From Azolla caroliniana (lineage: Eukaryota; Plantae; Polypodiophyta): a stretch of DNA of 64,000 bases. A program made the translations under genes and the position numbers. Positions 433 through 39,774 of this stretch are shown here, piece after piece. Every line of letters begins with the position of its first letter. The stretch's first letter is position 1. The notes below the pieces were generated by a model. That model ran no database searches. It had not been told where the DNA came from and saw only the letters and a program-made list of their open reading frames with translations. The stretch spans positions 22,878,001-22,942,000 of the forward strand of contig JBHGNT010000004.1 of assembly GCA_043228905.1 (NCBI GenBank), read 5' to 3'.

Positions 433-1114
433 TGACGGGAACTCCTAGCTCCTTATGCGCAACGCTCGGCCACAACTGAGATTCTTTTCATACACAGAAA
501 AATAGGTAATGAAACGCGACACAAAGAGGAGAAATGGTACACAGGAGGTTTACGTGGAAAACCCCAAACTAGGGGAAAAACCACGGCAGCCCACAGGTTG
601 CAAACTGTCACTATGTAGAAATATACAACAGTGAGTTCATTGAGGCAACGACCTCGTGCTCTCTCTTCTTCGCCACAGGCGGCGGTTACAACAGAGGCCA
701 CGACCTCGTCTCTCTCACTCTCTCTATACAGTTACGCGCTCTCACTTCTTCTTGTACCAACAAGGAAGAATAACAACTACATAATATTAGTTTGCCCTAA
801 GTCATATTTATACTAATATGACTTTTCGGCTATTTACAAATATAGCCACAATGGGCTCTCAGAAAACATATTTATGAATATGTCTCTTCCTCCGGTTCAT
901 ACCAGGCCTGCACCATCCGGCTCTCCGTAGCCGGGTACTCCTCATCCGGTTCATACCGGGTCTGTATCATCCGGCTCTCCGTAGCCGGGTACTCCTCATC
1001 CGGTTCATACCGGGTCTGTATCATCCGGCTCTCCGTAGCCGGGTACTCCTCATACCGTTTGTTCGTCGGCACTGTTCTTCTCCCTTCCCATCCGGAGGGA
1101 CCTGTCTCCCTACA
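433..1114 (-). repeat. 3' LTR of B
   Basis: Direct repeat of 5168-5848; contains three 54 bp tandem units at ~890-1055. Confidence 0.95.
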
Positions 1115-1124
1115 AACTCCCCCT

Positions 1125-5137: not shown

Positions 5138-5153
5138 TTTCTGTGTCGATTTC

Positions 5154-5165
5154 GCTCTGATACCA
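5154..5165 (-). other. PBS (initiator tRNA-Met) of B
   Basis: TGGTATCAGAGC on the minus strand, 2 nt from the LTR. Confidence 0.92.
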
Positions 5166-5167
5166 CT

Positions 5168-5848
5168 TGACGGGAACTCCTAGCTCCTTATGCGCAACGC
5201 TCGGCCACAACCGAGATTCTTTTCATACACAGAAAAACAGGTAATGAAACGCGACACAAAGAGGAGAAATGGTACACAGGAGGTTTACGTGGAAAACCCC
5301 AAACTAGGGGAAAAACCACGGCAGCCCACAGACTGCAATTTGTCACTATGTAGAAATATACAACAGTGAGTTCATTGAGGCAACGACCTCGTGCTCTCTC
5401 TTCTTCGTCACAGGCGGCGGTTACAACAGAGGCCACGACCTCGTCTCTCTCACTCTCTCTATACAGTTACGCGCTCTCACTTCTTCTTGTACCAACAAGG
5501 AAGAATAACAACTACATAATATTAGTTTGCCCTAAGTCATATTTATACTAATATGACTTTTCAGCTATTTACAAATATAGCCACAATGGGCTCTCAGAAA
5601 CATATTTATGAATATGTCTCTTCCTCCGGTTCATACCGGGCCTGCACCATCCGGCTCTCCGTAGCCGGGTACTCCTCATCCGGTTCATACCGGGCCTGCA
5701 CCATCCGGCCCTCCGTAGCCGGGTACTCCTCATCCGGTTCATACCGGGTTTGTATCATTCGGCTCTCCGTAGCCGGGTACTCCTCATACCGTTTGTTCGT
5801 CGGCATTGTTCTTCTCCCTTCCCATCCGGAGGGACCTGTCTCCCAACA
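5168..5848 (-). repeat. 5' LTR of B
   Basis: Direct repeat of 433-1114, adjacent to the PBS. Confidence 0.95.
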
Positions 5849-6357
5849 CTAGGTAGTGAGTCGATTCGTTGTCGTCGAAGTGAACGTCTTCATACTCCGG
5901 CATCTTCGCCTTCCCTTTGTCCAACTTCGGACTTGGCTGAGATGTGCTTTGATCGCAAAGAGGCTCTTGTGGCCCACTAACCCTTGTCGTAATTAGGCTT
6001 TCTTCAAGCATGCGCATTGTCGCAATAATCCACGCGTATGTGTCGGATCTAGGCGGGACCACCGGGGTCTTGGACTAGGGAGAGATGGGTTTCTGGAAGG
6101 TCGAGTTCTCTAGAGCCGGATATGCTGTTGGGACTTCGGTCGGAACGGTTCTGGATGCGACCCGGAGACAACCGATCCGGGTGCGTCCCGAAATACGACC
6201 GGAACACGTAGAGGAAGAGCACGCGCATACACGGTACACACACCCGCTGGCCCGTCGCGAGTCATATGTATAGAAGGCCCGATGGATGTTTGCATATATA
6301 TATTTATACGAATAATAACAAATACGCGGACTACGGTCCAGTTCACCGCGCTCGCAT

Positions 6358-6358
<1 letters not shown>

Positions 6359-6434
<76 letters not shown>
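6359..6434. repeat. (CA)38 microsatellite inside LTR D
   Basis: Perfect dinucleotide run. Confidence 0.97.
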
Positions 6435-6439
<5 letters not shown>

Positions 6440-7545
6440 TGGGAAGAGCAAAACCCCCACACACCGAACTGAACGTAGACAAAGAGGGCCTGGGATAGCG
6501 CTCCGAGACCTGACACTCAAAAACACCCGCTGCACGCACCCGTGGAGATGAACAGAACAACAATGCTTTGCATAGGAAACACACACAGAAGTTTATATAT
6601 ATATATTCGTACAAGACAACGAAATACAACTTCGACCTCCAGTCGGACTAAGGTCTAAATAGACACGAAGACTCAACTCACACGACGACGACAAAGAAGA
6701 AGAAGACCTTGACAAAAACCTAAGACCGAAATAGGGAGAAGAAGAACTCTCGAACAACCAAAACCCTAGACCTAAGTGGTATACCCTTCTAACACAAAAT
6801 GGGCAACCCCTCAAAAACAGACCCTCCCTTCCTTTTATAACCTAAGGAGGGAGGGACGTTACAATGTGGGATAAATCCCTTATTACATGGGGTTCTCTAT
6901 CCTAACTTAACTCCTATTTGACGTGTAAAGAATCAAGAGGTGGATTCTGTGCAGCAGAATAGATATGAACTGTGTGTGTGTATGAGAGAGAGAGAGAGGG
7001 AGTGAGAGAGACAAGGAGTAAAACATAGAGAATACGCAAGTTAAAGTATATTAACAAAGGAGAAAGACTCAACATTATACAAGGTGGGAGGAGGGTGCTT
7101 TATATAGTCACCCTCTCTCTTCATTAACTACAAGTTTCCTTGAGCATGGGGAATGTGAAAGCTCATAAGTTATGTGTCATAGAATATGAGTCTATGACTC
7201 ATACTTAATGCTAGAATACAAAGTGGTGACATAATGGTGACTCTTGACCGTTGGAGTGTCTATTCACTCTCAAGGTGAGTTCATACACTAGACCAAGTTG
7301 AGCTTGATTCTCAACACGCCCCTTCAACCTCAAGTCAGGTCGGTTTCAGACGGTATCCAAAATCCGCTTCGACTCGCATTTTGTAGTCCGCGTCGACTCA
7401 TATTTATGTTGAGTTGCGGAATCCGTGCTCCAGCTTGCGTTGTGCGTAGTTGCGAAGTCTGTGCTTCAACTTGCATCTTTCTTCGCGGCTTTGCGTGGTA
7501 GATCGGCTATTCGCGGCTTCGTTACGCGGTTGCGGAATCCACGCG

Positions 7546-11708: not shown

Positions 11709-13686
11709 TGTCGCGAAGTTTTGCGCACATGTGTTACTTGGGCGGGACCACGGGGGTCTTGGACTAGGGAGTACTCAAGGGATAGAGAAGACCCGAGGTT
11801 TGCTTTACGACAATACTACTTCCTGACCCCTTCCCGAGCAAGGTCTCGTTGCCCTTTTTTATGTGAGGCCGGTAGCTCTCGTTGATCACGACTCGTCGAC
11901 CTTCCGAGATCACCGCACGAGCCAAGTGACCAAACGGGTACAAGCAAGATGAATAGAGGCCGGGAGTGGATTCGAAGTGCAAGGCACTTTCCCACGGGCG
12001 TGCCATGTGTTGGCCGGTCAGAAGAGCAAGGACAAGTGGGAAGGCGGAATCGGATCGGATAATAGGAAGAAAATAATAGTAGAATTATTATTCGGAGGGA
12101 TGGATCCGGTACAGTTGTACCGATCCGGATCCGGACCGATTCGGATGTCGGTTGCCTAAGCGCACCGATTGTAACCTTGCCGGATGCCTATAAAAGGATC
12201 CGATGATTTGTAAAGGGTTGGGACGGAAGTAATACAATAGTAATTATTGCGTGTTTATCTGTATCTCGTATTGTTTACCGTCTGTGCTTAATTGTAATCA
12301 TCTTACACGTGTAACCTAGCATCCAATCCTTACCACCCCTTTGGAGAAGTGTCGGATAGACACCTGTGTTGAGGCTAGTCCGGCCAGACAGACAACAACA
12401 AACACGAATGTCCGTACGTCTTTATGAGGAGGAGAGGTGCATGGGCACGCCCGAACGCTCCCTCGTCACAAGACGTCGAACGTACGAGGAAGACACAAAA
12501 CACATGCACAAATGCTTGTACGCCTTTATGAGGAGGAGAGGTGCATGGGCAAGCCCGAACGCTCCCTCGTCATGAGACGGACGAACATACAAGGAAGACA
12601 CAAACACACGCACAAAATGCTCGTACGCCTTTATGAGGAGGAGAGGTGCATGGGCAAGCCCGAAACGGTCCCTCGTCACGAGACGGTCGAACGTATAAGG
12701 AAGACACAAACACATGCACAAAATGCTCGTACGTCTTTATGAGGAGGAGAGGTGCATGGGCACGCCCGAAACGCTCCCTCGTCACAAGACGGCCGAACGT
12801 ACAAGGAAGACACAAACACACACACAAATGCTCGTATGCCTTTATGAGGAGGAGAGGTGCATTGGCAAGCCTGAACGGTCCCCTCGTCACAAGACGGCCG
12901 AACGTACAAGGAAGACACAAACACACACAAATGCTCATACGCCTTTATGAGGAGGAGAGGTGCACGGTAAAGCCCGAATGGTCCCCTCGTCACAAGATGG
13001 CCGAACGTACAAGAAAGACACAAACACACGCACAAAATGCTCGTATGCCTTTATGAGGAGGAGAGGTGCATGGGCAAGCCCGAACGGTTCCCTCATCACA
13101 AGACGACCGAACATACAAGGAAGACACGAATAAAGAAAGAAGGAGAAAAAGAAACACGAATGATATCGACCAAAGAGATAAATACGTGTTCGATTCCAAC
13201 GCAAGAGGACCCTTTATAAAATAGGGTTTTGTTTACAATGGCAACTTATAGTTAACCACAAGCTCAATCAAAACATAAATATTAAATGCCCTTAGAGACA
13301 AAAGAAAATCCGAACACGGCAAAGATGAACACACAAGCACCACCAAAATGCCAATCCCAACGAACCACGACCATCCGAACGGCGAGCACACGGGCTCGCA
13401 ACGACAAATGGGGCGGAGCAACGTCGAACCAACGAAGCTTGGGCTCACGAGCACTTCGAGTGCCGACGCAAAGAAGACGAGCACGTGGCGATGGGGGGGT
13501 GAAGGGGTATGAGATGAAGAGAAGTGGTGAATAAGGAGATGAAGAGCTTCAAAGGAAAATTGGTGATAGTCTCCTCCTCCCAAAACGTCCTCCCGAATGA
13601 GCCCCCCTCGACCTCCTTTTATAGGAAAAAAGAAGAAGGGGGGGTCGCCAAATTTGTCTTCAATGAAAAAGGAATAAAATTCCTTA
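11709..13686 (-). mobile_element. Truncated gypsy-type LTR E inserted in C gag; may itself contain a plus-strand LTR-like piece at ~11862-12330
   Basis: Starts TGTCGCG, has the same U5 motif at 11740-11765 and CCTTTTATAGG at ~13615. Fused by deletion to the remnant of the C LTR. Confidence 0.55.
12400..13130. repeat. Tandem array, 7 copies of a ~105 bp unit
   Basis: TTTATGAGGAGGAGAGGTGCA recurs at 12421, 12525, 12630, 12736, 12841, 12944 and 13050. Confidence 0.95.
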
Positions 13687-14765: not shown

Positions 14766-15375
14766 CATAGTATGAACCATAAGTACCATTCGTGCATTCG
14801 TGTTCGAGAATGATTCAATCATTTAAGAATGATAAACACCCTCGAAGAATGATAAATACCATACTTTTACAAATTAAAGCAATTACAAGCTTTTTAGAAT
14901 AATTATAGAAATTATAGAACAAATAAAAGAAAAATTACACAAATCACGAAGAAATGATATAGAAATTTCAAAATTTATAAAGAAATTACAGAAATGATAG
15001 AAATTACAAAGAAATTACAGAAATTACGAAAATTACAAAGAGATTACAAAAATTACAAAGAGATTTCAGAAATTTCAGAAATTACAAAATATTTACAGAA
15101 ATTATTGAAAAAGTACAGAAATTTCTATACTACATAAGACATACTACATAGTACATACTATGACCTAAAGTTTAAACAACTTTAAACCCTATTATTAACC
15201 CTAAATATACCTGAATCTCGTTGGTATGCAGATCGTTGAAGCAACAGATCGTTCGAGGCTAGGTGGGAGAGGAGAGGAGAGTGTAACATTACGTTTATGT
15301 GCAGAGGAAAAGGGGGAAAAAGACGGAAAAAACAAAAAGAAAGAAAAAAGAAAAAAATGGTTGGTCACCTTCTTT
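14766..15375. other. Foreign AT-rich segment replacing part of A, with a GAAATTACA-type minisatellite (~14905-15125)
   Basis: Abrupt loss of copia homology and a composition shift; imperfect 9-10 bp repeats. Confidence 0.65.
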
Positions 15376-17781
15376 GCCTAATGGGACATTGCCGATGTGT
15401 CGAATCAGATGGGTACTGTCGTCTCCGGTTTCGACATAGCAGGATCGGTCTGGCTCTCGAAGTTCTCAGACCCATTCTTGATGAGACGTCATATGGTTCG
15501 AGACACCGGAGTCGACGAACCATATGTCTTCCAGTCTAGATGCGCTATTGGTAGTAGACCCCGACATTGAATTTGCTCTATGTCTCATCATGAACATTCT
15601 GCCATGATCATCATAGTCGAAGTTGGTAGCGTAATTGGTGAGTTGTCGGCTAGTGGAAGCCAACTCCCACATCTTCTTACGACACTCTTCTTCATGGTGA
15701 CTGATTTTTCCGCAATATCCACATTTAACCGAATTTTGTTGGCTCGGACCGGAATGGAAGCTCCCCCTGTTGGAAATACCGCCATCAAATGTGAAACAAG
15801 ATCAACACTCTTCTTCTATAAGCTCCTATAAGATCGTCAGTAGATACAAGATCATAACATCTATAGCAGCAAAGATAAAGAATACAACTAGTACACCAAA
15901 GAGATAGAGATAGTTTGGCACAACGTAAAGAGTATATTACAACTTATTGCAACAACCACTAACTTGGTTACAAAGTCAGTTTATATACTGACTGACTTAG
16001 GGCAACTGCCCTTCTCACTATTCACATAAATAGCCTAAGCCTAGTGTGTACAAAAGGAGATGGTGTGAATATGTCCATTAGGAGCGTGTATTCAACACTG
16101 CCCCGTAATGGGCACATACATCGGAAATCTGTAGACCGAAATGAATGTACAATACAGATTGATACAAGGTTTACGAATAATCGAGAATTCGTTCAAGTCG
16201 GTGAACTCCGAAGAGCAGAAGGCCGGATTGACCGAGTTCGGTGAGACTGAAGCCGAAGTTCGAACTGTCAAGGTCTATTGTTCGAGAAACGTCCTGAGTG
16301 TTCAATTTAATCAGACTGGTTCTTCATTACACCCATTCGATGCCGAAGGGGTCAAAATTGATCCGCCGAAAGACACCTTGTTAATGCGTCCGCGACATTA
16401 TCGGTTATCGATATTTTCTCTAGACCGATTTTCCCTGTAATGACGCAGTCCCAAACGAAATGATATCGAACATTGATATGCTTGGAGGCATTGTGATGAA
16501 CTGGATTGTTCCACAGAGCAACAACACGCTGACTGTCACTTTAAACAATTGGAGCTGAGCCGATTTCGGCTTGTCGAAACGTACATGCTAGCCGACCGAG
16601 CCATAAGGCCTCTTTCGCCGCATCGAATGCGGCTACGTATTCGGCCTCGGCCGTTGATGTGGTGGTGCCCTCTTGAAGTTTCAATTTCCATGAGATCGCT
16701 CCATTGCCGAGTTTAAAACAATATCCGGTTGTCGATCTACAGTTGTCTATGCAACCTGCAAAGTCCGCGTCGGTGTATCCGACTACGCTTGAGATGTCGT
16801 TCGTGATGAACAGAATACCAAGGTCTTTTGTGCCCACTAGATATCTAAACACATGCTTGACTGTGTTCCAATGCGATCGGCCGGGATTATGCATAAATCT
16901 GTTGACGACTCCAACGATGTCAACAATGTCAGGCCCTGTCGCGACGATTGCGTACATTAGGGAGACAACTACCGGTGCATACAATACCGACTTCATAATT
17001 TCCCCCTCCGAACCGGATGTTGGGAAGTTTCGCTGAGATAGCCGGGGTAGAGGTAGATTTCGCCGATTGCATATTGAAGCGTTCGAGGACACGTTGTCAT
17101 GAAGAAAACCGTCCCCAGGCGCAAACCGTGTATAGTGTGTGTGAACCGGCCCTTTCACGTGGGCATGTCCCTTGTTGTACGGTGGATGGGTAGGCACAAA
17201 AGTTAAATCCTAGGTAGCAATATTCTGTAAGGGAAATCGAGGAGTATCTCTGTTCGAAAGACAGAGAGTTAATGTGATGTAAACAGGTGAGACGGCCTCC
17301 CTCCTTGAGCTATAAAAGAGAGGGAGACGGGGAGAGAAGGGTATCGCGCGCTAGAGGGAACGAAGTGCTGTCGGACTGGGACCGAGCTCTTCTTCTCTGT
17401 CGTTCTCCATAGCCTTCTTTGCGCAGGCTCTCGGGAGGCTGATTCTGTCCCGTGGAACGCCCGTGTGCTTCTGGCAGAATCTCCATCTCGCTCTTCTGTT
17501 TGCGTGAGTGAACAGGCTTCGGTGTTCGCCTTGCTGTCCTGTTAGTTGTAACCGTCTCGATATTTATACTTATATTAATATACATACATGTTCATATACT
17601 TGGACTTCTGGTCGTCTCGTTTTGTTGTGTTGTTGGACTGTGATTCCTATGTGCTCCCGTGTGAGTGCGTGTGTAAGAGGGTCCGTTGCCTTTCCGCTCT
17701 CCTCCTTCTCCTCTACTTCTTAGTCCAAGACCCCCGTGGTCCCGCCCTTCTCCACGCACGCGCGTAGCAACGCGACATATT

Positions 17782-17799
17782 TGGTGAACCCGACGTGAA
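17782..17799 (+). other. PBS of F, complementary to the tRNA-Trp 3' end
   Basis: TGGTGAACCCGACGTGAA is the reverse complement of ...TTCACGTCGGGTTCACCA, my recollection of plant cytosolic tRNA-Trp. Confidence 0.85.
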
Positions 17800-17820: not shown

Positions 17821-19784
17821 ATGAGGGGGTTGGACCTTGCAGAAGCCATGGCTTCGGCTGTAGACTATATAGTGAGTGCGCGCGAAGGCACTGGCGCCCT
17901 TGATAGGGCTATCGAGGCGGTTGTCGGTACGATCGGCCGGTTTAGTGGAAAGGATGCCACGAGCTACTTGGCGTCCTGCCGGATTGAGATGGTAATGAGG
18001 GACATTCCGGAAGAGAGGCGTCTAGCCGGATTCCCTCGAGTGGGGATGCCGGGTATCCATACGGAGGTGCTCGAGGTACGGGCCGAGAGCCGGACCTAGG
18101 AGGAGTTCGAAGGTCGGCTCCTCAAAAGATACGGGTTTGAAGATGCGCTTCGACTTTCGAAGCGGGACTTCATGGAGTGGGTGGAGACCCCCGACAAAGG
18201 AAGGAACGCGTCAGTGCTCCTTCGGGAGTTTGAGGAACGCTTCATGCGCCTCTCAGTGCTTGACCGGACCGTTCTGGACACAAGCCGTGTCCTATTGTTT
18301 GTTAAGTCGGTTGACGAGCGGGATCGGGAGCAGGTAGGCGTCCTATTGGAGACTGATGACGGGCTGACAGCCGACTGGGCTGTAGTGAAAAGGGTCTGTG
18401 GCCGTTTCGACAAACGGCGGGAATGGGCTGACAAAGGATCGATAGGGCAGGCTCTGTCGCAGCAAGGAAGCTCGAGCCAACATCACCAACGCGAAGGGAA
18501 GAGACCCGAGATTGCCTCGAGACCGGGTCGGCTTCAATCAACATGGTCAAGGGCTCGTCCGGGGGAGCAACTTTGGAGGAGCTGACGCGGATGGTAAAGG
18601 ATCTCCAGATCGCCCAGGCACGAAGGGATGGTGGCGAACAGGCCCGTGACCGACGACCTCTGGCTGAAAACAGGTGCATGTGGTGTGACGCGGTTGGGCA
18701 CATCCGGAAGGACTGCGGGGACTTCGTCGAGGCGATGAGAAGCAACGTGGTGTACCTGTGGAACGGTCGGGTGCACGCCAGTGAGACCCGAAGGGCCCAG
18801 AACTTGAACGTTGGGCGAGGGGGTATGAAAAGGCTGATGGAGGAGGCGGCGGCTCGTCACGCGGAGACCGTCCACTACTCGGCGTCAGCTGGTATTCGGG
18901 TCGGAGGTGGCGAGGCCCCGAAGACGAACAAAGCCGGGTTCTGGCCGACGATGCTGGAAGGCCTCGACGGCGCGCGGCTGAGGAAAGAAGAGGTGGACCG
19001 CGCGGAAAAACGGGTCTGGGAGGTAACTGGGTGGAGTGACCCGGTGGAAGAAAAGACGGGCTTCGTCGAAGCCGCTTGTCAAAACTACGAGGCTTTGGTA
19101 GAGGACAAGCGGGTAGGGAAAACCGGAGGGGCCGGGCCCTCGCAGCGATATGAAACTCGATTCGGGCAAAGGCGGAATGAGGCCGGTGTACTCGGCGCCC
19201 AGGATAATCCCAAGAAGGGCGGGTACCGGTTGGGCACAGAAATCGAAAGATCCACGGACCTGCGAAAGGTCCTGGAAGAACGAATCCTCGACAACAAGGT
19301 GGAACTGTCGCTGAGGGAAGTGCTTGGGATCGCCAAGAAGGAGTTCCACGACTCCATCGTAGACTTGGTGAAGAGGAAGAGGCTGTCGACGGAGACATAA
19401 CCGGAGAGGCCGGTGGAGGTGCGGACGAAGCACATAGAGGACATGGCGCTGGAAGACAAGTTGGCGGAGAGCCACTATTCGAGGCCGCACTAGGCCAGAG
19501 CGACCACAGAGACCCCCGTGATGATCGGAGATGTTCATGAACCAGTGGTGGCGTTGGTGGACCACGGTTCAGAAATCAATTTGATGTCCATGGACTTCTA
19601 TAAGAAGGGAAAATGGCCGTACATCATGGCAACACGAATGGAGACCAAGGTGCTGGACAATGGCTCGGCCTATGCGAGGGTCAAGAGCCAGGATGGGCGC
19701 CACTCGGTTCAGTTCCTGACGGGGAGGCCGAACCATGAGCGGAACCGTGAGACCCTCGGGGGCGAAAGCCGAGAGGATTTTTAG
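17821..19784 (+). pseudogene. F gag-protease
   Basis: CMWCDAVGHIRKDC knuckle and ALVDHGSEINLM protease motif; in-frame stops, a frameshift and an internal protease deletion; ends ...EDF*. Confidence 0.88.
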
Positions 19785-19840
19785 AGAGGGCTATCAAGGC
19801 GTGGGGCCGCGATAGTCCGGACACTCTGGGAAAACCCCAC
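19775..19840 (+). promoter_or_regulatory. Predicted -1 ribosomal frameshift signal (F)
   Basis: GGATTTT heptamer, 6 nt spacer, stem GGGCTATC/GATAGTCC, second stem GTGGGG/CCCCAC; the -1 frame is open into RT. Confidence 0.8.
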
Positions 19841-22800
19841 AAATGTACGATAGCGGAGAAAGCTTGTACTATAAGTAGGAAATTTTGGTTCTCCGACAAC
19901 GGAGGGTGTACGATAGTTGATGTTGTTGGACGGAAGAAAAAAAGGGCGGAGGAACGACTTCGGGCATGTGGCGTACTCGGCCTTGGAGAGGAAATCAACG
20001 GAGCCGTGGAGGCGGTCTCTTTCGACGATACCTTGGGGGAGCTGCGAGAGGTAGTCGGAGGAGTCCTTAAAGAGGACCAAACGATTCCGGTATGTTCGGA
20101 AAAGATGTACGAAGTCATCGCGGACTTCAGTAGAGGGCTCAAGTTGGATCGGACGGCCCGGGTGGACACGAGGTACAAGACTGTGGACCGGAAGGTGAGG
20201 CCAGTCGCGGCTCCCTTGCCGGAGGGCAGCGAGTTGCGAATAAAGGGGGTTGTGTGTGACCCGAGTTTACGAAATCCGGCCCGAATAGGACACACGTTCA
20301 CCGACATAACGCTACGGGAGCTCAAGGTCGGTGGGGGCGGCTTCCTACTGCCGGCGGAGGAGGACCGGTTTCGGAGAATGCTGGGAAGGCACGGGAAGGC
20401 TTTCACATTCTCACCAGGGGAGATCGGGTGCATAGACCCGATAGTCGTGGAACCGATGGTGATATTCACAGTACCGCATGTGCCGTGGAGTCTCAAACCG
20501 ATTCTAGTACCCAGAGCTCACATCCCGAAGCTGATGGAGCTGTTAAAGCAGAAGGTCGAAATGGGAATCCTCGAACCGTCGAGTGGCCCATACTCGAATC
20601 GGTGGTTTACCGTGCCGAAGAAGGACGGCACGCTGCGCTTTATCTAAGACATGCAGCCGGTCAACAAGGTGACCATTCGAAACGCAGGAATCGGACCGAC
20701 AATAGACGAGTTTGCGGAGGCCTTCGCCGGAAGGTTGATTTACTCGGTCGGTGATCTCTACTCGGGATACGATCAGTTTCAGCTTGCCGTAGAGAGCAGA
20801 GACATCACAACAATGCGAACTCCTCTCGGCCTAGTATGGATGTGTACCCTGCCGCAAGGAGGGACGAACTCGGTGGCTCACATGGTGAACGCAATGAACA
20901 AAGTGCTGAGGGATTGTATCCCGGACATCACCATGCCGTTTTTGGACAACGTCCCGATCAAGGGATGCCCGGTAGAGGAAAGGGACGAGACGATCGGACT
21001 GGACGGATGCCGGAAATTCGTGGCGACGCACATCGATGACTGCGATAAGGTGCTGCAGAGGTTGGAGGGAGCGAGGCTCACCTTCTCCGGGGGAAAGTCG
21101 GCCTTCGGGCAATCAGAGATCATGGTCGTCAGACACCTATGCGGGCCGTACGGCCGGAAACCGTCTCTGGCTAAGGTAGAAGCCATCTCCGCGATGAAGA
21201 ACGACTGTAGCTCGGTCACGGAGGTTCGGAGGTTCTTGGGAGCGTGCGGGTTCTACCATATATGGATCCCGCATTACGCTCACGTCGCGGAGCATACGAG
21301 TTGCTGAAAAAGGGGCGAAAATTCGAGTGGAGAGACGAGCATATGGAGTCTGTCCGGAAGATGAAGGGAGCACTTGCCGTGGCTCCGACGCTCCGAAAGG
21401 CTGTCTACAGACAGAGCACTCCAATTTACGTAACGGTAGACACGAGTCCGACCGGGATCGGATGGGTCGTCAACCAAGAGGACGAGGACGACATGCGTTT
21501 CCCGATCCGGTTCGGCGCGAAGGTCCTCAGCGCGAAGGTTAAACGTGAGCTCTGGGGTATCGTTTCAGCGGTAAAGGCCGATAAAGACAACCTGATCGGG
21601 GCAGAGGTAATTATCGAGACGGATTGCCTGCCAATTCTTGGCATGGTTTCCAGATGCGCGACGCCGGACCTGGCAATGCTCAGGTGGATAGCGTACATCA
21701 AGTCCTTGAATCCGGAAATACGACACATTTCCGGGAAAGACAATGCCATGGCTGACATGCTTTCAAGGGCGAGGTTCGAAAACGAGGGCGGCATGGTTTC
21801 GGAGGATGAGGAAGTCGGCGTGGACTTCTTCAAGGCGGCTCACGTAACAACCAGCAGGGAATGCACTCCAACGCTTAACGATTTCGACGAGAGCAAGTAC
21901 GACGGGGAGTGGCTGTAGATCGGCGGGTTCCTGAAGACAATGACACCAGACGCGGCATGGACAACGGACGAGGCCAACCGGATTCGGAAGAAAGCCTATC
22001 GATTCTTTCTCCGGGACAGATACATATGGAAGCACCCAAAGAAGAGGAACGACATCCCGCTCCGAGTGGTGGCGAAGAAGGATGATCAAGAGGATTTGCT
22101 GGCGGCGTACCACGATAGCCCGTGGGCCGGACACCGTGGAACGTGGGCCACGTTCGAAAAGCTAAAGGGGAAGTACTGGTGGCCGGGACTATACCGGGAC
22201 GTGCATTGGTTCGTGACGACTTGTGAAAGCTGTCAGGTGCACTCCATGATCCGACATCGGGACGAGCTTCACCCGACCTACCCTCCGACCGTCCACTTCA
22301 AGTGGATGGTGGATTTGGTGACGATGCCAATGGGGGTAGGACAGATGCGGTATCTGGTGCTGGTTCGGGAAGATCTAACGAACCAGGTTGAAGGCCGAGC
22401 CCTACAGAACAAGACGACGGCAGCCGTGTGCCGGTTTTTGATTGAGGATGTAGTATGCCGATACGGGTGCATAGGGAAGATCGTGGCTGACCGTGGTGAG
22501 TTGGACGCAGAAGAGGCCGAAGAGCTGTTCGACCGGCTAGGAGTCAAACTTTCGCTCACCACAGCGTACAATCCGGAGGCGAACGGGAAGGTGGAGCGCG
22601 GACATGGGCCAATTGTCAAAGCGTTAGTACGGGCGTGCGGAGGCCGAGTCGGGGACAGGCCACGGCTGCTACCTTATGCCTTGTGGGTGGACCAGACTAC
22701 GCACAGTTCGGTAACCGGGTTCATGCCGGCCGAGCTGATGTTCGGATAGAAGCCGATCATGCCAACAGAGCGAACGATCTCCTGGTGGGCCATGGTGGAC

Positions 22801-23247
22801 TGGAGGGATGAGATGAGCCGGGAGGAACTGTTGGCGGCGTGGATTCGACAGCTCGAGCGGAGGCCGGAGGACGTAGAGCGGGCCATGGAGAAACTTCGGG
22901 TAGCGAGGATAAGGAACAAAGCCCGGTTCGACCGAACACACCGGCTCCGGCCAGGGAAGATCGAGGAAGGCGACTGGGTGCTAGTCTACGACAGCAACCT
23001 CGACAATCAGCACAAGGCCACACGGAAGTTTGCGAGGAGGTGGTTCGGGCCTTACGTAGTAACAGGCGCCAACAACAATGGGACGTACCATCTCGTGGAG
23101 CTCGACGGTACGAGAATGGCGATACGGGTAGCGGGGAAGAGGATGAAAATGTTCAAGAAGCGACACGATGGTGAGCCGGAGCAAGGGGGCATGGACAACG
23201 ACGACGAGCAGCCCGAGGCAGAGGATGAACCGGTAGACGGGGAATAA
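19781..23247 (+). pseudogene. F pol (RT-RNase H-integrase)
   Basis: DLYSGYDQF, LPQGGTNS, FLDN (catalytic D mutated), VDTS, ADMLSR, H...GH...CESC, NGKVER, FGPY; several stops. Confidence 0.92.
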
Positions 23248-24765
23248 AATCAAGGATCGGTTTTCTCCCGTAGGAACCCAATTTTGGCGCATACCGGTGG
23301 ATGCGCGGTTAGGTGGGGGCGGATGTCGTGAAGAAAACCGTCCCCAGGCGCAAACCGTGTATAGTGTGTGTGAACTGGCCCTTTCACGTGGGCACGTCCC
23401 TTGTTGTACGGTGGATGGGTAGGCACAAAAGTTAAATCCTAGGTAGCAATATTCTGTAAGGGAAATCAAGGAGTATCTCTGTTCGAAAGGAGAGAGAGTT
23501 AATGTGATGTAAACGGGTGAGACGGCCTCCCTCCTTGAGCTATAAAAGAGAGGGAGACGGGGAGAGAAGGGTATCGTGCGCTAGAGGGAATGAAGTGCTG
23601 TCGGACTGGGACCGAGCTCTTCTTCTCTGTCGTTCTCCATAGCCTTCTTTGCGCAAGCTCTCGGGAGGCTGATTCTGTCCCGTGGAACGCCCGTGTGCTT
23701 CCGACAGAATCTCCATCTCGCTCTTCTGTTTGCGTGAGTGAACAGGCTTCGGTGTTCGCCTTGCTGTCTTGTTAGTAGTAACCATCTCGATATTTATACT
23801 TATATTAATATACATACGTGTTCATATACTCGGACTTCTGCTCGTCTCGTTTTGTTGTGTTGTTGGACTGTGATTCCTATGTGCTCCCGTGTGAGTGCGT
23901 GTGTAAGAGGGTTCGTTGCCTTTCCGCTCTCCTCCTTCTCCTCTACTTCTTAGTCCAAGACCCCCGTGGTCCCGCCCTTCTCCACGCACGCGCATAGCAA
24001 CGCGACAATGTTCAATGTAGTTGGATTGAGATAGAGACAATTGATGTTGATTATGATTCTGACTTATCTTCATACCAAGGATGTGTCGTGTAGGACTGAG
24101 ATCCTTCATGGCAAACTTCAACCGTAGTTGCTGAACAAGTTCAGCTAGTTCGCCAGCATGGTGTCCAGAGATTAGCGTGTCGTCTACGTAGATGATGAGG
24201 AAGATGGGTGATCCATCTCGAGCTGTTTTCGTGAAGAGACAGTGGTCCTCATCGCTCTTTGAAAATCCGATCGATTGGATGAAGTCGCCGAACTTCTTGT
24301 ACCACTGTCGCGGTGCCTGTTTCAGGCCGTAAAGACTCTTCCTGAGTCGGCAGACTAGATGTTCTTGGCTAGATGCCACAAAGCCTTTCGGCTGCTCCAT
24401 ATAAATTTCCTCCTCAAGACCACCATGGAGGCAAGACGTTTTGACATCGGGCTGAATCAACTCCAAATTCTTGGCTGCCACTACGTCGAGCATAAAGCGA
24501 AGGGTGGTCATTTTCACCACTAGCGTAAAAAATTCGTCGAAATCGATGCTATGTTCTTGTCGAAAGCCCTTTGCTATTGATTTGGCTTTGACTTTTGAGT
24601 TGGCCGAATCAGACGTCTCCTTAATTCGATAGACCCACTTGCACGGAAGAGCACGTCGATTTTTCGGTAATTTGACCAAGTTCTAAGTCTTGTTTGGATG
24701 AATGAAGTTCATTTTGGACTCCATTGCCAGATGCCAGGTGGCCGAATCGGCTGATGCCGATGATT

Positions 24766-27700
24766 CTCCGTAGCCGGGTACTCCTCATCTAGTTCTCACT
24801 GGCTTTGCACCATCCGGCTCTTCGTAGCCAGGTACTCCTCATCCGGTTCTCACCGGGTCTGCACCATCCGGCTCTTCGTAGCCGGGTACTCCTCATCCGG
24901 TTTCACACCCTAAACCCTAAACCCTATCGGCCTCGGCCGAGTTTGTTCATTAGCACTGTTCTTCTCCCTTCCCATCCGGAGGGACCTGTCTCCCAACAAA
25001 CTCCCCCTTCACTCCGGCATGGGGTGTCTTACTAGTTCGATCCTCTTTCGGCATGCATCCAGCTTGTCGGGTATCAACACTTTGGTCAGCATATCTGACC
25101 TGTTCTCGGCCGTGTGGATCTTCGTCAGTGCGAACTCCTGGTCATCTACTCTTTCCCGGATCCAGTGATATCTTCGCTGGATATGCTTCATCCGGGAATG
25201 GTAGGCCGCATTCTTAGCAAGATGGATGGCACTTTAACTGTCGCAATAGAGTCGGTATTCATCTTGCCAGATACTGAGCTGTCCGATGAAGTCCTTCATC
25301 CATAATATTTCCTTGTCGGCTTCCACAGCCGCCATGTACTCCGCCTCCGTGGTTGACAATGCAACCGTCTTCTGCAGCCTCGACTGCCATGAGACAGCTC
25401 CCCCTGCATATGTCATTACATACCCGGATGTAGACCGGCTGGTATCCACATCGGCCGACATGTCCGAATCGGTGAAACCGTCAAGTTGAGGTTTTTTGGA
25501 GCTGAATCGGAGACACATATTTGAAGTGCCCTTCAAATACCGGAGTATCCATTTGACCGCGTTCCAGTGCTCCTTGCCGGGATTGCTCATAAACCGGCTC
25601 ACCACTCTGACTGCGTATCCTATATCCAGTCGGGTACACACCATTGCGTACATCAAGCTCCCGACGGCAGAGGCATATGGAATCTTCATCATATCCGCCT
25701 TCTCTGCTTTCGTCTTCGGGCTTTGCTTACCGGATAGCCTGCAGTTTGCCGGAAGTGTCGATCCGACCGGTTTTGCATCTGACATGTTGAACCGGTGAAG
25801 CACCTTTGTCACGTACTTCTCCTGTGACAACCATAATTGCTTCACTAACCGGTTCCGGATAATATGCATGCCCAACATCTGTCTTGCCGGACCCAAGTCT
25901 TTCATTGAGAAGGTCCGGTTGAGGGCCTTCTTCAGCATCTGTATTTTGACTTGGTCCCGTCCGACGATCAACATGTCATCCACGTACAAAAGGAGTATCA
26001 CGAAGTCGCCTCCTTCGAACTTCTTCACAAACACGCAGTGATCGGCCTGCGTCTTGTGGTACCCTTGATCGGTCATGAAGGAATCGAACTTCCGGTACCA
26101 TTGTTGGGGAGCCTACTTTAGTCCGTACAGGCTCTTCTTCAGCCAGCATACCAGGTGCTCCTTCCCTTTCTCCACAAATCCCTCCGGTTGCTGCATGTAG
26201 ATCTCCTCTTCGAGGTCGCCCTAAAGGAATGTCGTCTTCACGTCCAGCTGTTCTACCTCGAGATCCATGCTTGCCGCTATACTCAGCACCGTCCGGATGG
26301 AGGTCATCTTTACTACCGGGGCAAATATCTCGTCAAGGTCTACACCCTTTTTCTGCTGGAACCCCTTCACCATGATCTTGGCTTTGTATCTCGGGGGGTT
26401 GCCGGCATCTCCCGGTTTCAACTTGTACACCCACTTGTTTCGGAGTGCCCGCTTTCGTTTCGGCAACTCCACCAATTCGTACGTATGGTTCTCATGCAGG
26501 GAATCCATCTCCTCCTGCATGGCACTTAACCATTTGCGGCTGTGGGGGTCATCCTTCGCTTCTTCGAAGCTTTCCGGCTCCCCCTCATTGGTCAGCAGAA
26601 CATGCTCTACATCCGGAAATCTCCGGGGCGCCCTTCTCTCTCTGAGAGGATATCTCTGTCTTCGGGCTTCGGTAACCGGCTCCTCCATTTTCTCTTCATC
26701 CGAATTCGATTCGGGGTCTTGGCCGGTTCCGGTTTTAGCTTCCTCTACTTCTTCTTCAGCCTATTCGGTATCCTTACCGTAACCGGCTGGTCCCTCGAGT
26801 GCTAACCGGTCTCTTACCGGTTGGGTCTGCTCATCGTAGAGTCGATCCTTACCGGTCGACTCAGAGTTCATTATCTTCTTCTCTGACTCCCAGTCGGCGA
26901 GCGTCTTGTCCTCCATGAAGATAATATCTCGACTCCGGAATACCTTCTTGTCCACCAGGTCCCACACTCGGTAGCCGAACTCATTGTCACTGTAACCGAG
27001 GAATATGCATGGCTGGGTCTTTGGATCTAACTTTCCTCTCCGGTCCTTTGCTACATGCCCGTACGCGAGATACCCGAACACCTTCAGATGTCGGTAGGAT
27101 ACTTCCTTACCGGTCTATACTCTGTGTGGCGTGTCTCCGTCCAAGGGTACTGAGGGTGATCTATTTATCACATATGTCGCCATCGACAATGCCTCAACCC
27201 AAAACTTCTTGGGTAGTTTTGCATGCGCTAGCATACTCCAGACCCTCTCCATTATGGTCCGGTTCATCCTCTCGGCCAGTCCGTTTAGTTCCGGCGTCTT
27301 CGGCACGGTAAATTCGAGCCGGATTCCCTTCGAGCGGCAGTACTCCTCGAAATGACCCCGGTATTCTCCTCCGTTATCTGCTTGAACCGCCTTCAGCTTC
27401 CGGTTGTGGTCATCTATGAATGTCACGAAGTATGGCGCTCTGGCATGTGACTTCGTGTCTACTTGACACACATCCGTAGGCACCAACTCCAGTGGTGCAT
27501 TACGTCTCATCGGTGGCCTTGGTCGGAAGGAGGTCCGGTTTTGCTTACCGGCCAAAGAATCAGTGCACTTCTCCAAGTGCACGTTCTTCACTTGAATGAG
27601 GTTGTCGTCTGCAAGCCTCTTCATCCCATTCTCGCTCATATGACACAACCTCTTGTGCCACAACTCACCGGCACTTTCGGATTCCACGTTCACTTCTTCC

Positions 27701-29350
27701 GGACATAACCGGGCATTCATCAGGTACAGTGTGTTGACCTTCCGGGCCCGAGCCACAATCAGGCTCCCTTTGTTGAACTTCATGACACCGTTCCGGATGC
27801 TACCCGTGTAGCCTTCATCATCTAGCGGACCGGCTGATATCATGTTCAGACGAACCTCCGGAACGTGTCGGACATCCTTCAACAGCAACTTGCATCCAGT
27901 TGGTGTTGTCAGCCACACATCTCCTATGCCGACAATTCGGCATGTACCTTCATTCCCCATCCGGACACAATCGTGATCACAGGCTGAGTAGAATGAGAAG
28001 CATTTCCGGTCCGGGGTAAGGTGGAACGACGCTTCGGAGTCTACCACCCAGGTCATCTCGTCGCCGGCAAGGTTTATCTCACTCTCCTCGGTGATGAGCA
28101 TCAACTCTTCTTCACTTGCCGCGATTGCCGTCGTTCCCTTCCGGTCCGGCCCCCTCCGGTCTTTACCGTTCCGCTCCGGGGTCCGCTTCAAATTGGTACT
28201 GTCGGTTTCCTTGTCTTTTCGGAAATGCCGACAGTTCTTTTGGAAGTGTCCCGGCTTGCCGCAATAGAAGCAAGTTGGCCTCCCCCTTGACTTTGACCGT
28301 GTCCCCGACTTCTCCCGGTTCTGGGGACTACGGTTTCTATGTCTTCCGCGTTCCGATTCGGTAAGGAGCGCTTTGGAGTCGGAGCTCGTATCTTTATCTT
28401 TCCGACGCGCCTCCTCGTCTAGCAAGCTCGACTTTACTCTTGCTAGGGATAACCGCTTTCCTTCCGGCCCGGCGTTGCCCAAAGTGACAACCAACGTCTC
28501 CCAGCTATCCGGGAGGGAAACAAGCAGGAGTAGCACTAGTACCTCATCGGCGAGAGGTACTTCCAATGAAGTTGCCTGGTGAATCAGCCCGTGGAAGGCA
28601 TTCATGTGCTCCGCCATGCTGGAGCCATCTTGGTACCAGAGTCTTACTAGCTTCCGGAATACCGAAACCTGATTAACAACATTTTTGTTCTAAAACATAA
28701 TGCCGATCTTCTCCCAGAGCTCATGAGCCTTGCTCTCTTCATTGAAGTTGTTGTATAGGCTCATGTCGATGAAGCACCGTATGTATGCTGTTGTCTTCAT
28801 GTGCATCACCTCCCATACTATGGCATCGATTTTATCTGGTCTCTTGTCCCCAAACTGAACCGGCAAACTAGGGAAAAAACCACGGCAACCCACAGCCTGC
28901 AAACTATCACTATGTTAGAATGTACAACAGTGAGTTCACGGAGGCAATGACCTCGTGCTCACGATCTTCGCCACAGGCGGCGGTTTCAACAGAGGCAATG
29001 ACCTCGTTCTCTCTCTCTCTCTCTCTGTACACGGTTACACGCTCTCTCTTTTCTTGCACCAACAAGAATGACAACAACTACTAAAAGTTTGCCCGAAGTC
29101 ATATTTATACTAATATGACTTTTCGGCTATTTACAAATATAGCCATGATGGACTCTCAGAAACATATTTATGAATATGTCTCTTCATCCGGTGAGCACTC
29201 CTCACCGGGTCTGCACCATCCGGCTCTCCGTAGCCGGGTACTCCTCATCCGGTTTCACACCCTAAACCCTAAACCCTATCGGCCTCGGCCGAGTTTGTTC
29301 ATCAGCACTGTTCTTCTCCCTTCCCATCCGGAGGGACCTGTCTCCCAACA
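24766..29350 (-). mobile_element. Degenerate copia N (B family) with both LTRs truncated
   Basis: Highly similar to B throughout. Partial LTRs at 24766-24998 and 28865-29350. A deletion at ~28864 removes the gag start and PBS. Confidence 0.92.
24908..24926. repeat. Plant telomeric repeat (CCCTAAA)2.7 in the N LTR; second copy at 29260-29278
   Basis: CCCTAAACCCTAAACCCTA is present in both LTRs. Confidence 0.9.
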
Positions 29351-32300
29351 GTTGGCACATCGGAAAAAATTACCCTTCAGACTTTGATCGTTTTTTCAAC
29401 CGATTGATGCATGCCCGACTCATTGAACTTCAGACGATCTGTCTGTGTTCGGGGTCCTAGAGTCGATATCCCATTTCGCCATCTGTTCCATAACCGAGAA
29501 AAATACATTTCCTGGACCTTGGTGCAAGTTTGCGGCGATCATCTTTCGGGATGAGGGCGTATGCCTTGCATCCGAAAATCCTCAGCTTGTCATAATTCGG
29601 CTTACTGCTGGTACATAGTTCCTGACGGATCCGAAGTCCTAGAGGCCTCCCCGACGACATATTGATTATGTGTACTGTCGTAAGTAGGGCGTCTGCCCAG
29701 AAGCTATCCGACAGTCCAGAGTGTTGGAGCATGGAAACTATCCTTTCTTGAATTGTCCGACTCATTCCCTTGACAATTCCATTCGGCTCCAGACTGTGAG
29801 GTGTCGTAAATTCACGTCTAATGCCGCGTTGTTGGCAAAATTTGACGAATTCCTCTGATTTGAACTCTCCCCCATTATCGGACCGAATGCTTTTTAGTTT
29901 TTAGCTGGACACGATCTTTGGTTTTGATCAGATAAGCCGACACCTTCCGAGTCGAGTCATCAATGAAGCTGACGAAATACAGAGTGCCGCCGAGGGACTG
30001 ATGTGGCATAGGACCCACATACGTCTGAGTGGAGCAAATCGAGTGGACTCGAATCTCTCGGGGCAGATGAAGGGTGTCTTATGGCTATTTGCTTGCTGTA
30101 TTTGCAATGCTCGCAGAACTGATGATCTGAGAAGGAGAGTTTGGGGACGTATCCAACTCTAGATAAGTGTGTGATGCCGGCTTTGCTGAGGTGTCCGAGT
30201 CGTCCGTGCCAGAGTGATGACACGGTGTCGTGTTGTTCCGCTTTCATGTAGGAAATAAGGCGGAACCGCGGGGGTCCTGAACCGAGGAGCAAGAGAGAGA
30301 AGAAGGCGGAGCGGGAGAAGAGCGCAAGCGTAGGCTGGTTAGGCCCGTTGCCACTGACAACATCTGCCGGCCGAAAGAACCACTAACACGTAACTGAACA
30401 AGATACACACTCGCGTAAAAGAGAGGCTCACAGAAACACAGAGAGAGGGAAAACAAAAGACTCGATTCCTATAACAGTAAAGGTTACATTGTTTGCAAGA
30501 TTATAGCCGGATAGCCGGTGACAGGCCCAACCCAAACAATCACACACCCACGTAGTAGAGCCTTTGCTGGAAGCACATGACTTTCCTCGAAGTAGAGGCA
30601 ACTAACTCAGAAAGCCTGTAGAAAACCATGAAAGAGGGGGAGAAAGCTCCGTTCCCAGTCCGACAACACCTCGTTCTTCCCAAAAACGCGATACTTGGTT
30701 TGGTTTCCTCTCCTACGTTTTATAGGCCGTCGGAGAGAAGTTGTTACATCCTGGTCACATCACCCTTATTCCTTGTCCCTTCGGACAAGGATACACATCA
30801 ATTTCCTAGCTAATGAATGTGTACTACCTAGTATATGCACATCAGCCAAACTATTCCTAGTTATGTACAAAGTGTTGGTTTGTGCGCACACGCGTAAGGG
30901 CCGGTTCCTGCCCCCCCTTTCCCCAATTCCGCCTAAGGCTGGTTTTCTTCACGACATCCGCCCGCACCAAACCGCACATCAACCAGTATGCGCCAGATAG
31001 GGATAAATGCCGGAGAAAACCGGCCCGTATTCAACCGTCGCTCCCCGAATCCTCGTCCGCTCCAGACCGGTCATCGCCGTCGTCCACTCTTCTCGAGTCC
31101 GGCTCGTGCTCGTGTTGCTTCTTAAATGACTTGATCCTCTTCCCGGCTACAGGCACCGTTAACTGTGTTCCGTCGAGCTCTGCAAGATGGTAGGTGCCGT
31201 TGTTGTTTGTGCTTGTTACTGTGTAGGGTCCGGACCACTTCCTCGCGAATTTACGCACCGCCTTGTGCTGGTTTTCGAGGTTGTTGTTGTACACCAGCAC
31301 CCAGTCGCCTTCCTCAATCTTCTTCGGTCGTAGCTGGTGCGTTCGGTTGAACCGGCCTTTGTTCCTTTCCCTTGCCGCATGCAGCTTCACTTTTGCCCGT
31401 TCTACTTCTCCCGGTCTTCGCTCGAGCTGACGAATCCGCGCCGCCAACAACTCTTCTCGGCTCATCTCGTTTCTCCAATCTATCGCCGCCCACAAGAAAA
31501 TCGTTTGCTCCATGGGCATGATCGGCTTCTGCCCATACATCAACTCTGTCGGCATGAACTCGATTACCGAGCTATGCGTAGTTCGGTCCACCCACAATGC
31601 GTAAGGTAGAAGCCGCGACCAATTCCCAACTTTCCCTTCACATGCTCGTACCAATGCCTTCACAATTGGGTCATGGGCGCGCTCTACTTTACCGTTCGCC
31701 TCCGGATTGTACGTTGTAGTGAGAGAGAGCTTGACCCCTAACCGGTCGAAGAGCTCTTCGGCTTCCTGCGCATCCAGTTCTCCCTGGTCAACCACAATCT
31801 TCCCTATGCACCTGTACCGGCATACCACCTCTTCGATAAGGAACCGGCACACGGCCGCGGTCATCTTGTTCTGTAGCGTGCAGCCCTCCACCTAATTCGT
31901 CAAGTCCTCTCGCACAAGCACTAGGTACCGCATCTGGCCTACCCCCATCGGCATCGTCACTAAGTCCACCATCCATTTGAAGTGGATGGTGGGCGGGTAG
32001 GTCGGGTGTAGCTCGTCCCGATGTCAGACTGCGGAGTGCAGCTGGCAACTTTCACACGTCGTCACGAAATGGTGCACGTCCTGGTATAGCTCTGTCCACC
32101 AGTACTTCTCCTTGAGCTTCTCGAACGTGGTCCACGTCCCACGATGTCTAGCCCAAGGGCTCTCATGATACGCTGTTAGTAACGCTTCTTGCTCTCCTTC
32201 CCTGCTACAACATGGAGTGGGACGCCGCCTCGCTTCTTCAGGTGTTTCCATATGCTTCCGTCATGTAGGAAGAATCGGTACGCCTTCTTCTACATTCGTT

Positions 32301-33811
32301 TAGCCTCTTCTGCATCCGACGTCATTGTTTTCAAGAACCTGCCGATATGGAGCCACTCCCCGTCGTACTCGCCCTCATTGAACTTGTTAAGCGCTGGAGT
32401 GCTCCATGCCCTCGTCGCCATGTAACCCGACTTGAAGAAGTCCACGCCGACTTCTTCGTCCTCCGAAACCATGCCATCCTCGCCGTCGAACCTTTCCCGG
32501 AGATGTGCCATATCTCCAAACTCAGGGACTTGATGTACGTGATCCACCTGAGCATCGCTAGGTCCGGCGTCACGCATCCGGAAACCATACCAAGGATCGG
32601 TAGGTAGTTCATCTCAATTATCACCTCCGTCCTGATCATGTAGTCTTTGTCGGCCTTGACCGCCGAAACGATACCCCGAAGTTCATGTTTAACTTGGGCG
32701 TATCCTCGCTGCCGCTCGCTCAACACCTTCGCTCTGAACCGGATCGGGAGCCTCGTGCCACTCTCGTCCTCCTAATTGATCACCCATCCAATCCCGGTCG
32801 GGCTCGTGTCTATGGTCACATAAATCAAGACCCCCTTTCCGTAAACTGCTTTCCGGAGTGCTGGCGCCGCGGTTAACGCCTCTTTCAGTGTTCAGACCGA
32901 CTCCATATGGTACCCGCTCCACTCGAACTTGTGCCCTTTCTTCAACAACCCGTAGAGTGGCTCCGCGACGTGTGCGTAGTGTGGAATCCAGATGTGGTAG
33001 AATGCGCACGTGCCCAAGAACCTTCGGACTTCTGTAACCGACTTGCAGTCTTCCTTTATTGCGGAAATGGTCTCTACCTTTGCCGAAGACGGTTTCCGGT
33101 CGTAGGGCCTGCACAAGTGTCCGACCACTAGGATCTTCGACTGCCCGAAATCCGATTTCTCTCCGGAGAAGGTGAGTCGTGCGTTCTTGAGTCTCTGAAG
33201 CACCTTCTCGCATTCGCCAATGTGGTCCACTACGAATCTTCGGCATCCGTCCAACCCAACTGATTCATCCTTCTCTTCCACCGGGCACCCTTTTATCGGG
33301 ATGTCGTCCAAGAATGGCATGGTGATGTCCGGGATGCAATCCCTCACACCTTATTCATTGCATTCACCATGTGTGCCACCGAGTTGGTCCCTCCTTGCGG
33401 GAGGGTACACATCCGCACTAAGCCGAGAGGAGTTTGCATTGTCGTAATGTCCCTGGTCTCCACGACTAGTTGGAACTGATCGTACCCTAAGTATAGATCC
33501 TCGACCGAATAGATCGACCTTCCAGCGAAGGCCTCCGCAAACTCGTCAATGGTCGGTCTGATACCTGTGTTCCGGATGGTCACCTTGTTGAACGACTGCA
33601 GGTCTTGAATGAAGAGTAGCGTGCCATTCTTCTTCGACACGGTAAACCACTGATTCGAATAAGGGGCACTCGATGGCTCGAGGATGCCCATCTCCACCTT
33701 CTGCTTTAGCAGCTCCATCAACTTCCGGATGTGAGCTCTGGGTACCAGAATTGGCTTGAGGTTCCACAACACATGCGATACCGTGAAGATCACCATTAGT
33801 TCCACGATCAT

Positions 33812-39704: not shown

Positions 39705-39774
39705 ACTTGTGGTGTTCTGTTGGAGTGTCCGGTCTATCACGGCCCCACGACTTGATAGCCCTCTCTAAAAATCC
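39705..39774 (-). promoter_or_regulatory. Predicted -1 frameshift signal (G)
   Basis: Minus strand reads GGATTTT TAGAGA GGGCTATCA..GTGGGG..TGATAGACC..CACCAC; slightly decayed. Confidence 0.7.

Follow-up and report, generated by a model that had tools for sequence, protein, structure and literature searches.

A predicted pseudoknot-associated −1 frameshift signal after the protease in Phygy-like Ty3/gypsy elements of Azolla caroliniana

Introduction

How does a retrotransposon whose gag and protease close at a stop codon express a reverse transcriptase that is encoded in another frame? The question is raised by a 64-kb window of the Azolla caroliniana genome (the whole stretch of DNA analysed here) that carries three Ty3/gypsy copies, designated F, G, and H. 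For plant LTR retrotransposons, the means of balancing Gag and Pol has been documented mostly for splicing (PMC12786077), and a 2003 survey, as summarised in the 2016 review PMC5009743, reported only +1 gag-pol layouts in plant elements. The lineage table of a 2019 survey (PMC6317226) contains no lineage in which GAG-PROT overlaps RT in a different frame. A preliminary description of the window proposed that F, G, and H shift ribosomes into the −1 frame after the protease, and here we examine that proposal using the three copies, a set of related loci, and database proteins.

Results

Three defective copies share a heptamer at the end of the protease frame

A search of both strands of the 64-kb window for GGATTTTTAG gave three matches in total, at 19775 (+), 39774 (−), and 54737 (+), where F, G, and H had been described as ending gag-pro. 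At each of them the protease frame does read G GAT TTT TAG, with the protein terminating in …EDF, …GDF, and …SDF, respectively. From the heptamer onwards, the −1 frame reads GFLERAIKAWG in F and GFLERTIEAWG in H, both as claimed, and GFLERAIKSWG in G. The F −1 frame had been called stop-free into RT; it stays open between 19751 and 20647 and is cut short there by a premature stop within RT.

Copy F is 6,913 bp long and carries a deletion. Its 5′ LTR (17095–17777, +; TG...CA) is preceded by the target-site sequence ACGT, has 97% identity to the 3′ LTR, and is followed by a primer-binding site (17782–17798, +) whose sequence is identical in G and in many related loci. The gag-pro region (17821–19784, +) codes for DUF4100 and then an aspartyl protease with a DHG motif at 19560, and is damaged by stops, a frame break, and a deletion inside the protease. 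The slippery heptamer G_GAU_UUU (19775–19781, +) is followed by the 0-frame stop TAG and the remainder of a 6-nt spacer (19782–19787, +), and then by predicted stem 1 (19788–19818, +), in which 19788–19795 pairs with 19811–19818. The 15-nt loop of stem 1 contains a G-run (19801–19806) that is the partner of CCCCAC, the 3′ strand of predicted stem 2, at 19835–19840 (+). A −1-frame stretch of about 128 codons with conserved coding (19781–20164, +) leads into the RT–RNase H–integrase region (20165–23247, +), which is broken by stops and one frame break; the 3′ LTR (23324–24007, +) is followed by ATGT, a target-site copy with one change.

Copy G (30226–42572, −) has LTRs that are 92% identical, the first LTR base deviating, with target-site CCGT on both flanks and a copia element inside. 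Its heptamer (39774–39768), stop, and decayed stem 1 occupy 39731–39774 (−); stem 1 has a G-A mismatch, the stem-2 partner has also decayed, and the G junction folds no better than shuffled sequences (z 0.23). Copy H (52528–54940, +) retains a primer site, a broken gag-pro, and the first 66 pol codons before it is truncated, with pol similarity stopping near 54940. Its heptamer (54737–54743), stop, and stems 1 and 2 lie at 54737–54799 (+), with stem 1 pairing 54749–54757 and 54773–54781, and stem 2 pairing 54764–54768 and 54795–54799; stem 1 is absent from the nested minimum-energy fold of H. A nucleotide search with F finds no match to H, which is a distinct family, in keeping with its portrayal as much the more divergent copy. 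Both the stem 1 pairing and the pairing of the loop G-run with CCCCA(C) are present in F and H as described, those of G having decayed. All three copies are defective, with stops and frame breaks.

Other repeats in the window include the copia element inside G (33812–39125), whose LTRs measure 485 bp (92%) and whose 5-bp target duplication is ATCAT, and a second copia element at 43555–47679, which has an unbroken 1374-codon polyprotein frame and LTR stretches that are 100% identical over 300 nt, and is a very recent insertion. Copies related to the latter lie at about 433–5850 and 23822–28700 on the minus strand. There are also tandem arrays of ~105-bp units, of 9–11-bp AT-rich units, and a long TATG-type microsatellite, at 12398–13141, 14930–15140, and 60960–64000.

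The elements are Phygy-like

Domains run in the order DUF4100, protease, RT, RNase H, integrase. In a Pfam search of four full pol frames, the only families recovered were those of RT, RNase H, and integrase, and neither a chromodomain nor an additional RNase H was among them. We identify the protease from Pfam matches in 13 of 18 members and from its DHG and ILG motifs; a search of PDB sequences with the protease profile gave no match, and the protease structure model (pLDDT 44.5) was too poor for use. The target duplications, ACGT/ATGT in F and CCGT/CCGT in G, fit a 4-bp NCGN pattern. In F, G, H, and about 40 loci, the 5′ LTR is followed by a conserved primer site of 17 nt, which may be a tRNA-Trp primer-binding site. 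The homologs that carry names belong to Physcomitrium, Riccia, and Adiantum (a moss, a liverwort, and a fern), the Physcomitrium protease homologs having 55–68% identity.

The 2019 survey lists Phygy with a 4-bp NCGN target duplication, tRNA-Trp, a length of 7.7–10.0 kb, and a polyprotein organisation of ‘ND’, and gives it as Physcomitrella-specific (PMC6317226). The present elements are like Phygy, as characterised there, in the 4-bp NCGN duplication, in having neither chromodomain nor extra RNase H, in being compact, and in their close Physcomitrium protease homologs, but they differ in that F, at 6.9 kb, is shorter than the listed range and that homologs reach Riccia and Adiantum (PMC6317226). 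Element size is a criterion of little weight according to the survey's authors (PMC6317226). Because the length of F falls outside 7.7–10.0 kb, we file the elements as Phygy-like and not as proven Phygy members, an assignment made from the survey's feature list.

The heptamer and the −1 layout recur in related loci

We assembled a set of 81 related loci, made up of the best 80 of 190 metagenome relatives (79 distinct loci) and two from a genome scan. Most come from one series of related assemblies, so that the counts lack independence and the p-values from shuffles overstate significance; the number of distinct junctions is 55, and that of distinct stem-1 arm pairs is 39. Among these 81 loci, drawn mostly from the best 80 of 190 relatives, 80 have a stop after the protease, 72 have the in-frame heptamer GG[AT]TTT[TC], and none reads from protease into RT in a single open frame, the layout that, in young intact copies, the preliminary description had named as fatal to its reading. 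The eight stop-bearing loci without the heptamer comprise two single-base variants and six that are apparently truncated or rearranged. Read in the 0 frame, with G_GA and G_GU allowed, the heptamer conforms to X_XXY_YYZ in all three window copies and in the same 72 of 81 loci. According to PMC5009743, G_GA is a known exception to the XXX rule and G_GAU_UUU a known plant-virus shift site, in agreement with the earlier appeal to GGAUUUU as a functional site in dianthoviruses.

RT was found downstream in 66 loci of the set (best 80 of 190 plus two), in the −1 frame in 61, in +1/−2 in four, and in the 0 frame in one; the −1 frame is open for at least 1000 codons in 28 loci of the same set. The sole 0-frame case, L046, has its RT behind a stop and contains further breaks, and we rejected it as an alternative layout, along with the +1 cases L065 and L073, since all three keep the 6-nt geometry and have further breaks. 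The −1 frame opens just 3–40 codons ahead of the site, the low value being that of L019 and L064, and therefore the interval for crossing over is narrow and includes the heptamer. In 48 tails the codon after the heptamer is TAG in 24, TAA in 11, TGA in 8, and a sense codon in 5, and the codon ending in the first G of the heptamer encodes 12 different residues. Three −1 families lack a stop adjoining the heptamer: in L052 (G_GAU_UUC, 6426–6450), L060 (G_GAU_UUU, 935–959), and L067 (G_GUU_UUC, 1258–1270) the stop lies farther on, in two of them inside stem 1.

Some members of the set are unusual as contigs. L080 (CADCWO010000092.1) is an element with the full signal on a contig of a cyanobacterial genome assembly, and is probably plant DNA binned into that assembly. 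L031 (at 7496) and L038 (at 6644) have a second primer-binding site at the far end of the contig, which comes from tandem or collapsed copies. A scan of viral contigs for relatives found none.

Protease homologs end where the heptamer would place the stop

At the protein level, an exact DF-stop end is found in 69 of 100 protease homologs with 55–89% identity. In 52 distinct tails, the position ahead of DF is occupied by S, Q, L, V, E, P, G, T, M, or A; the seven residues without a G-ending codon never occur there, compared with 25% across the nine preceding positions (naive p 2e-7, which is overstated as the tails are related). This bias is predicted by an invariant G in G_GAU_UUU. A pool of 160 proteins contains 84 with DF at the end, 31 with DF plus 1–6 residues, and five with VF plus 1–6 residues, besides 18 that run on, five that end otherwise, and 17 without the anchor. 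Where 1–6 residues follow DF or VF, they number exactly five in 32 of 37 proteins, which fits a stop within stem 1 at a fixed distance. Of 74 distant representatives that cover the profile to its end, 50 terminate within 45 residues (14 of them in DF) and 24 run on, seven of these reaching RT. Proteins that run on from protease to pol are known from Physcomitrium, Riccia, and Adiantum; they were read as proteins, several of them sharing one apparent join, the named ones are gene models, and they count against the frameshift reading. Separately, in three Riccia proteins (P0063, P0064, and P0079) Gag-Pro terminates in VF and five further residues, which points to a G_GUU_UUY site of this geometry.

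A pseudoknot is predicted downstream of the heptamer

The junction has a fixed geometry of heptamer, 6-nt spacer, 8-bp stem 1, and 15-nt loop, with a constant axis in 71 of the 74 junctions scored; the exceptions are 5-nt spacers in L049 and L053 and one degenerate outlier. Aligned across related loci, stem 1 covaries, as the earlier reading supposed: 94.9% of 312 cells are paired in 39 sequences, compared with 23–44% in slid controls, and two-sided changes occur at six of eight pairs (28 cells). In the distant families L078 and L080 the encoded residues are wholly changed and stem-1 pairing is kept; because residues change while pairing persists, the constraint on stem 1 acts on the RNA. Summed helix energies of the pseudoknot, calculated with no loop terms, have a median of −28.2 kcal/mol versus −10.9 kcal/mol at 300 control positions, and 53 of 55 distinct junctions lie past the control 5th percentile.

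For stem 2, the loop prefers its own downstream strand over all of the next eight windows in 26 of 31 families, and when own partners were compared with swapped ones, none of 10,000 permutations was as good; the families used here, and for coding constraint and splice donors below, were selected largely for open pol frames. Stem 2 is mostly a G-run paired with a C-run, and is weak in L021, L052, and L067. Among the 40 best-supported rows of F variants from sequencing runs (119 more exist), none falls at 19775–19792; the variants 19793 A>G and 19813 T>C would, if linked, compensate for each other. An Rfam search of the signal gave no match. From covariation and these controls, we predict an H-type pseudoknot at the junction.

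The junction is coding, and other routes to Pol are unlikely

Between the shift site and RT lies a conserved stretch of about 105–130 residues. In codons 25–105 after the site pN is below pS in 12 of 12 pairs, indicating purifying selection, and the pol frame has no stops in the 105 codons past the site in 26 of 26 chosen families, whereas the other two frames have 3–17 each. The first Met is variable in position, from codon 1 to codon 109. A structure model of the stretch (pLDDT 64.8) predicts a beta hairpin and helices, and Pfam and Foldseek searches gave no match.

These observations bear on the possibility that Ogre-like splicing drops the stop and joins protease to RT in some transcripts, the stems being incidental or regulators of splicing. 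There is precedent for such an arrangement, as the Ogre intron lies between GAG-PROT and RT (PMC6317226), and several database gene models link the protease end to pol, with some joins recurring. However, those joins use many different acceptors, and no position provides a shared GT donor in more than 10 of the 26 chosen families; an intron would also leave the invariant GGAUUU without a reason. We saw no RNA joint in 69 reads from a related species (45 + 24, both strands), a weak result given the thin cover. Pol could instead be made separately from its own AUG by termination-reinitiation, internal initiation, or a subgenomic RNA, and indeed a Met is common about 100–110 codons past the site, and L049 and L053 have a pol-frame AUG 17 and 26 nt, respectively, upstream of the ORF1 stop. 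Yet several families (L019, L059, and L060) lack this common Met, the codons before it are under purifying selection, and reinitiation leaves the heptamer and its fixed 6-nt spacer unexplained. The stop-free pol frame, the lack of a shared GT, pN below pS, and the scattered first Met together argue against both an intron and a separate start, and we regard the intron as very unlikely and the separate start as less likely again.

A stop followed by a pseudoknot is also the layout of a readthrough signal, as in murine leukaemia virus, and Retand has the organisation GAG-PROT:stop:RT (PMC6317226). Pseudoknot-stimulated readthrough of this kind is excluded by frame, since the 0 frame closes 3–64 codons past the stop and RT lies in −1; moreover, the identity of the stop varies freely, and the three −1 families noted above have none beside the heptamer. 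Polymerase slippage would have to occur on a U-run merely 4–5 long, and readthrough or slippage is the least probable of the routes considered. For frameshifting after the protease, every prediction that could be computed has held.

One clade may have converted to a −2 shift

Two families in the set, L049 and L053, are arranged differently. Their junctions read CAG GTT TTT TAC TAG and CAG GTT TTT GAC TAG, giving AG_GUU_UUU with a 5-nt spacer that places stem 1 one base nearer, and strong stems 1 and 2 are retained. The −1 frame closes after four codons in L049 and none in L053; in the −2/+1 frame, all pol domains lie within open stretches of 1099 and 1152 codons, respectively, and DNA cannot separate −2 from +1. 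In a midpoint-rooted tree the two form one clade (100/100), with −1 elements on adjoining branches. Their RT sequences have diverged under purifying selection (pS 0.55, pN 0.076), and the clusters that their ORF1 proteins represent contain 4 and 35 sequences. Over the L049 junction, four contig pieces drawn from two independent runs align gaplessly with 5, 4, 5, and 10 mismatches; the mismatches predicted at these pieces are 5, 4, 6, and 7 for L053 and 19, 13, 16, and 20 for the best family with a 6-nt spacer. We consider the layout real because these pieces span the junction without gaps, and reject an assembly error on the contig pieces, the divergence, and the protein clusters.

A −2 shift would let tRNA-Phe re-pair on UUU in both families and would keep the junction length of the −1 relatives; a +1 shift in L053 would place tRNA-Phe on UUG. 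Against −2, P-site re-pairing from GUU to AGG is poor, and there are two families only, each with the nearby upstream pol-frame AUG given above. The PRRSV nsp2TF −2/−1 site is GG_GUU_UUU, with a −1 stop directly behind it (PMC4937337), which AG_GUU_UUU resembles, the −1 frame of L053 likewise meeting a UGA at once. With pseudoknots in vitro, −2 shifting is reported to have optimal spacers 1–2 nt shorter than −1 (PMC3458567), and the L049/L053 spacer, 1 nt under that of the −1 relatives, differs in this same direction. Unlike PRRSV, for which PMC4937337 describes a protein complex on a C-rich motif acting without RNA structure, L049 and L053 keep the ancestral pseudoknot; their signal would act in the manner of the arterivirus one without being the same. 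If the lineage does frameshift, we lean towards a −2 shift in these two families. For the composite picture, in which a pseudoknot drives a −1 shift after the protease and one clade was naturally converted to −2 by AG_GUU_UUU and a change of spacer from 6 to 5 nt with the pseudoknot kept, our preference is slight.

Discussion

The frames, the heptamer, its fixed spacing, the covariation, and the coding constraint in the −1 frame from the junction onwards can be read directly. On this basis we propose that programmed −1 ribosomal frameshifting very probably yields Gag-Pro and Gag-Pro-Pol. Gag and protease would be translated in one frame ending at G_GAU_UUU and a stop, with RT–RNase H–integrase reached in the overlapping −1 frame and the predicted H-type pseudoknot 6 nt downstream stimulating the shift. 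By analogy with established −1 frameshifting (PMC5009743), tRNA-Asp and tRNA-Phe would slip in tandem, from GAU UUU to GGA UUU, on a ribosome stalled at the pseudoknot. Most ribosomes would stop, giving Gag-Pro with protease equimolar to Gag, and a minority would produce Gag-Pro-Pol with a D-F-L junction.

The preliminary description held that a break after the protease sets these elements apart from most plant gypsies. This holds insofar as an overlapping-frame break at that place is unlisted in PMC6317226, but Ogre and Retand also break after the protease and, like the present elements, set Gag-Pro apart from RT–RH–INT (PMC6317226). Unlike these, Ogre has an intron at the break, Retand is interrupted by one in-frame stop, and an extra RNase H is present in both (PMC6317226). 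Here the junction is coding, stop-free in −1, and without a shared donor, in place of a non-coding spliced spacer of the Ogre type; and RT lies in −1 in 61 of 66 loci (best 80 of 190 plus two), in place of one frame split by a single stop as in Retand. Tcn1 and Selgy, as described in PMC6317226, are similar in having two overlapping ORFs in gypsy elements of non-seed plants, but their break falls between Gag and protease.

Rous sarcoma virus (RSV) places its protease within gag and primes with tRNA-Trp. RSV and HTLV-1 are retroviruses with other heptamers than the present elements, and the likeness between them is probably convergent. What they share is a pseudoknot-stimulated −1 shift into pol, at gag-pol in RSV and pro-pol in HTLV-1 (PMC5009743, PMC7075266). 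Dianthoviruses and umbraviruses have the same G_GAU_UUU with a nearby stop, used by plant ribosomes, and rely on long-range (ALIL) pairing (PMC5009743), whereas the pseudoknot predicted here is local, about 53 nt. The class of mechanism is well known; what the survey table does not list is the break after the protease into an overlapping frame, and the possible −2 switch is the newest part. No published description of this signal was found in the literature searched, the coverage of which excluded most subscription journals and Repbase entries.

With a frameshift signal that is both conserved and covarying, the ORF layout of Phygy, given as ‘ND’ in PMC6317226, would be settled for an abundant lineage, and the introns that gene predictors have invented there would be explained. 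Such a signal would also supply a compact recoding cassette active in plants, with dozens of natural variants. If true, the −2 reading would mean that a eukaryotic mobile element naturally uses a −2 shift stimulated by RNA structure, and that evolution has put the mRNA-tension model to a test. The slippery site and a single spacer base separate the sister −1 and −2 clades, making the spacer-tension model testable with natural sequences.

We also note that L067 combines G_GUU with a 6-nt spacer and a −1 frame, and is a possible intermediate toward the −2 clade.
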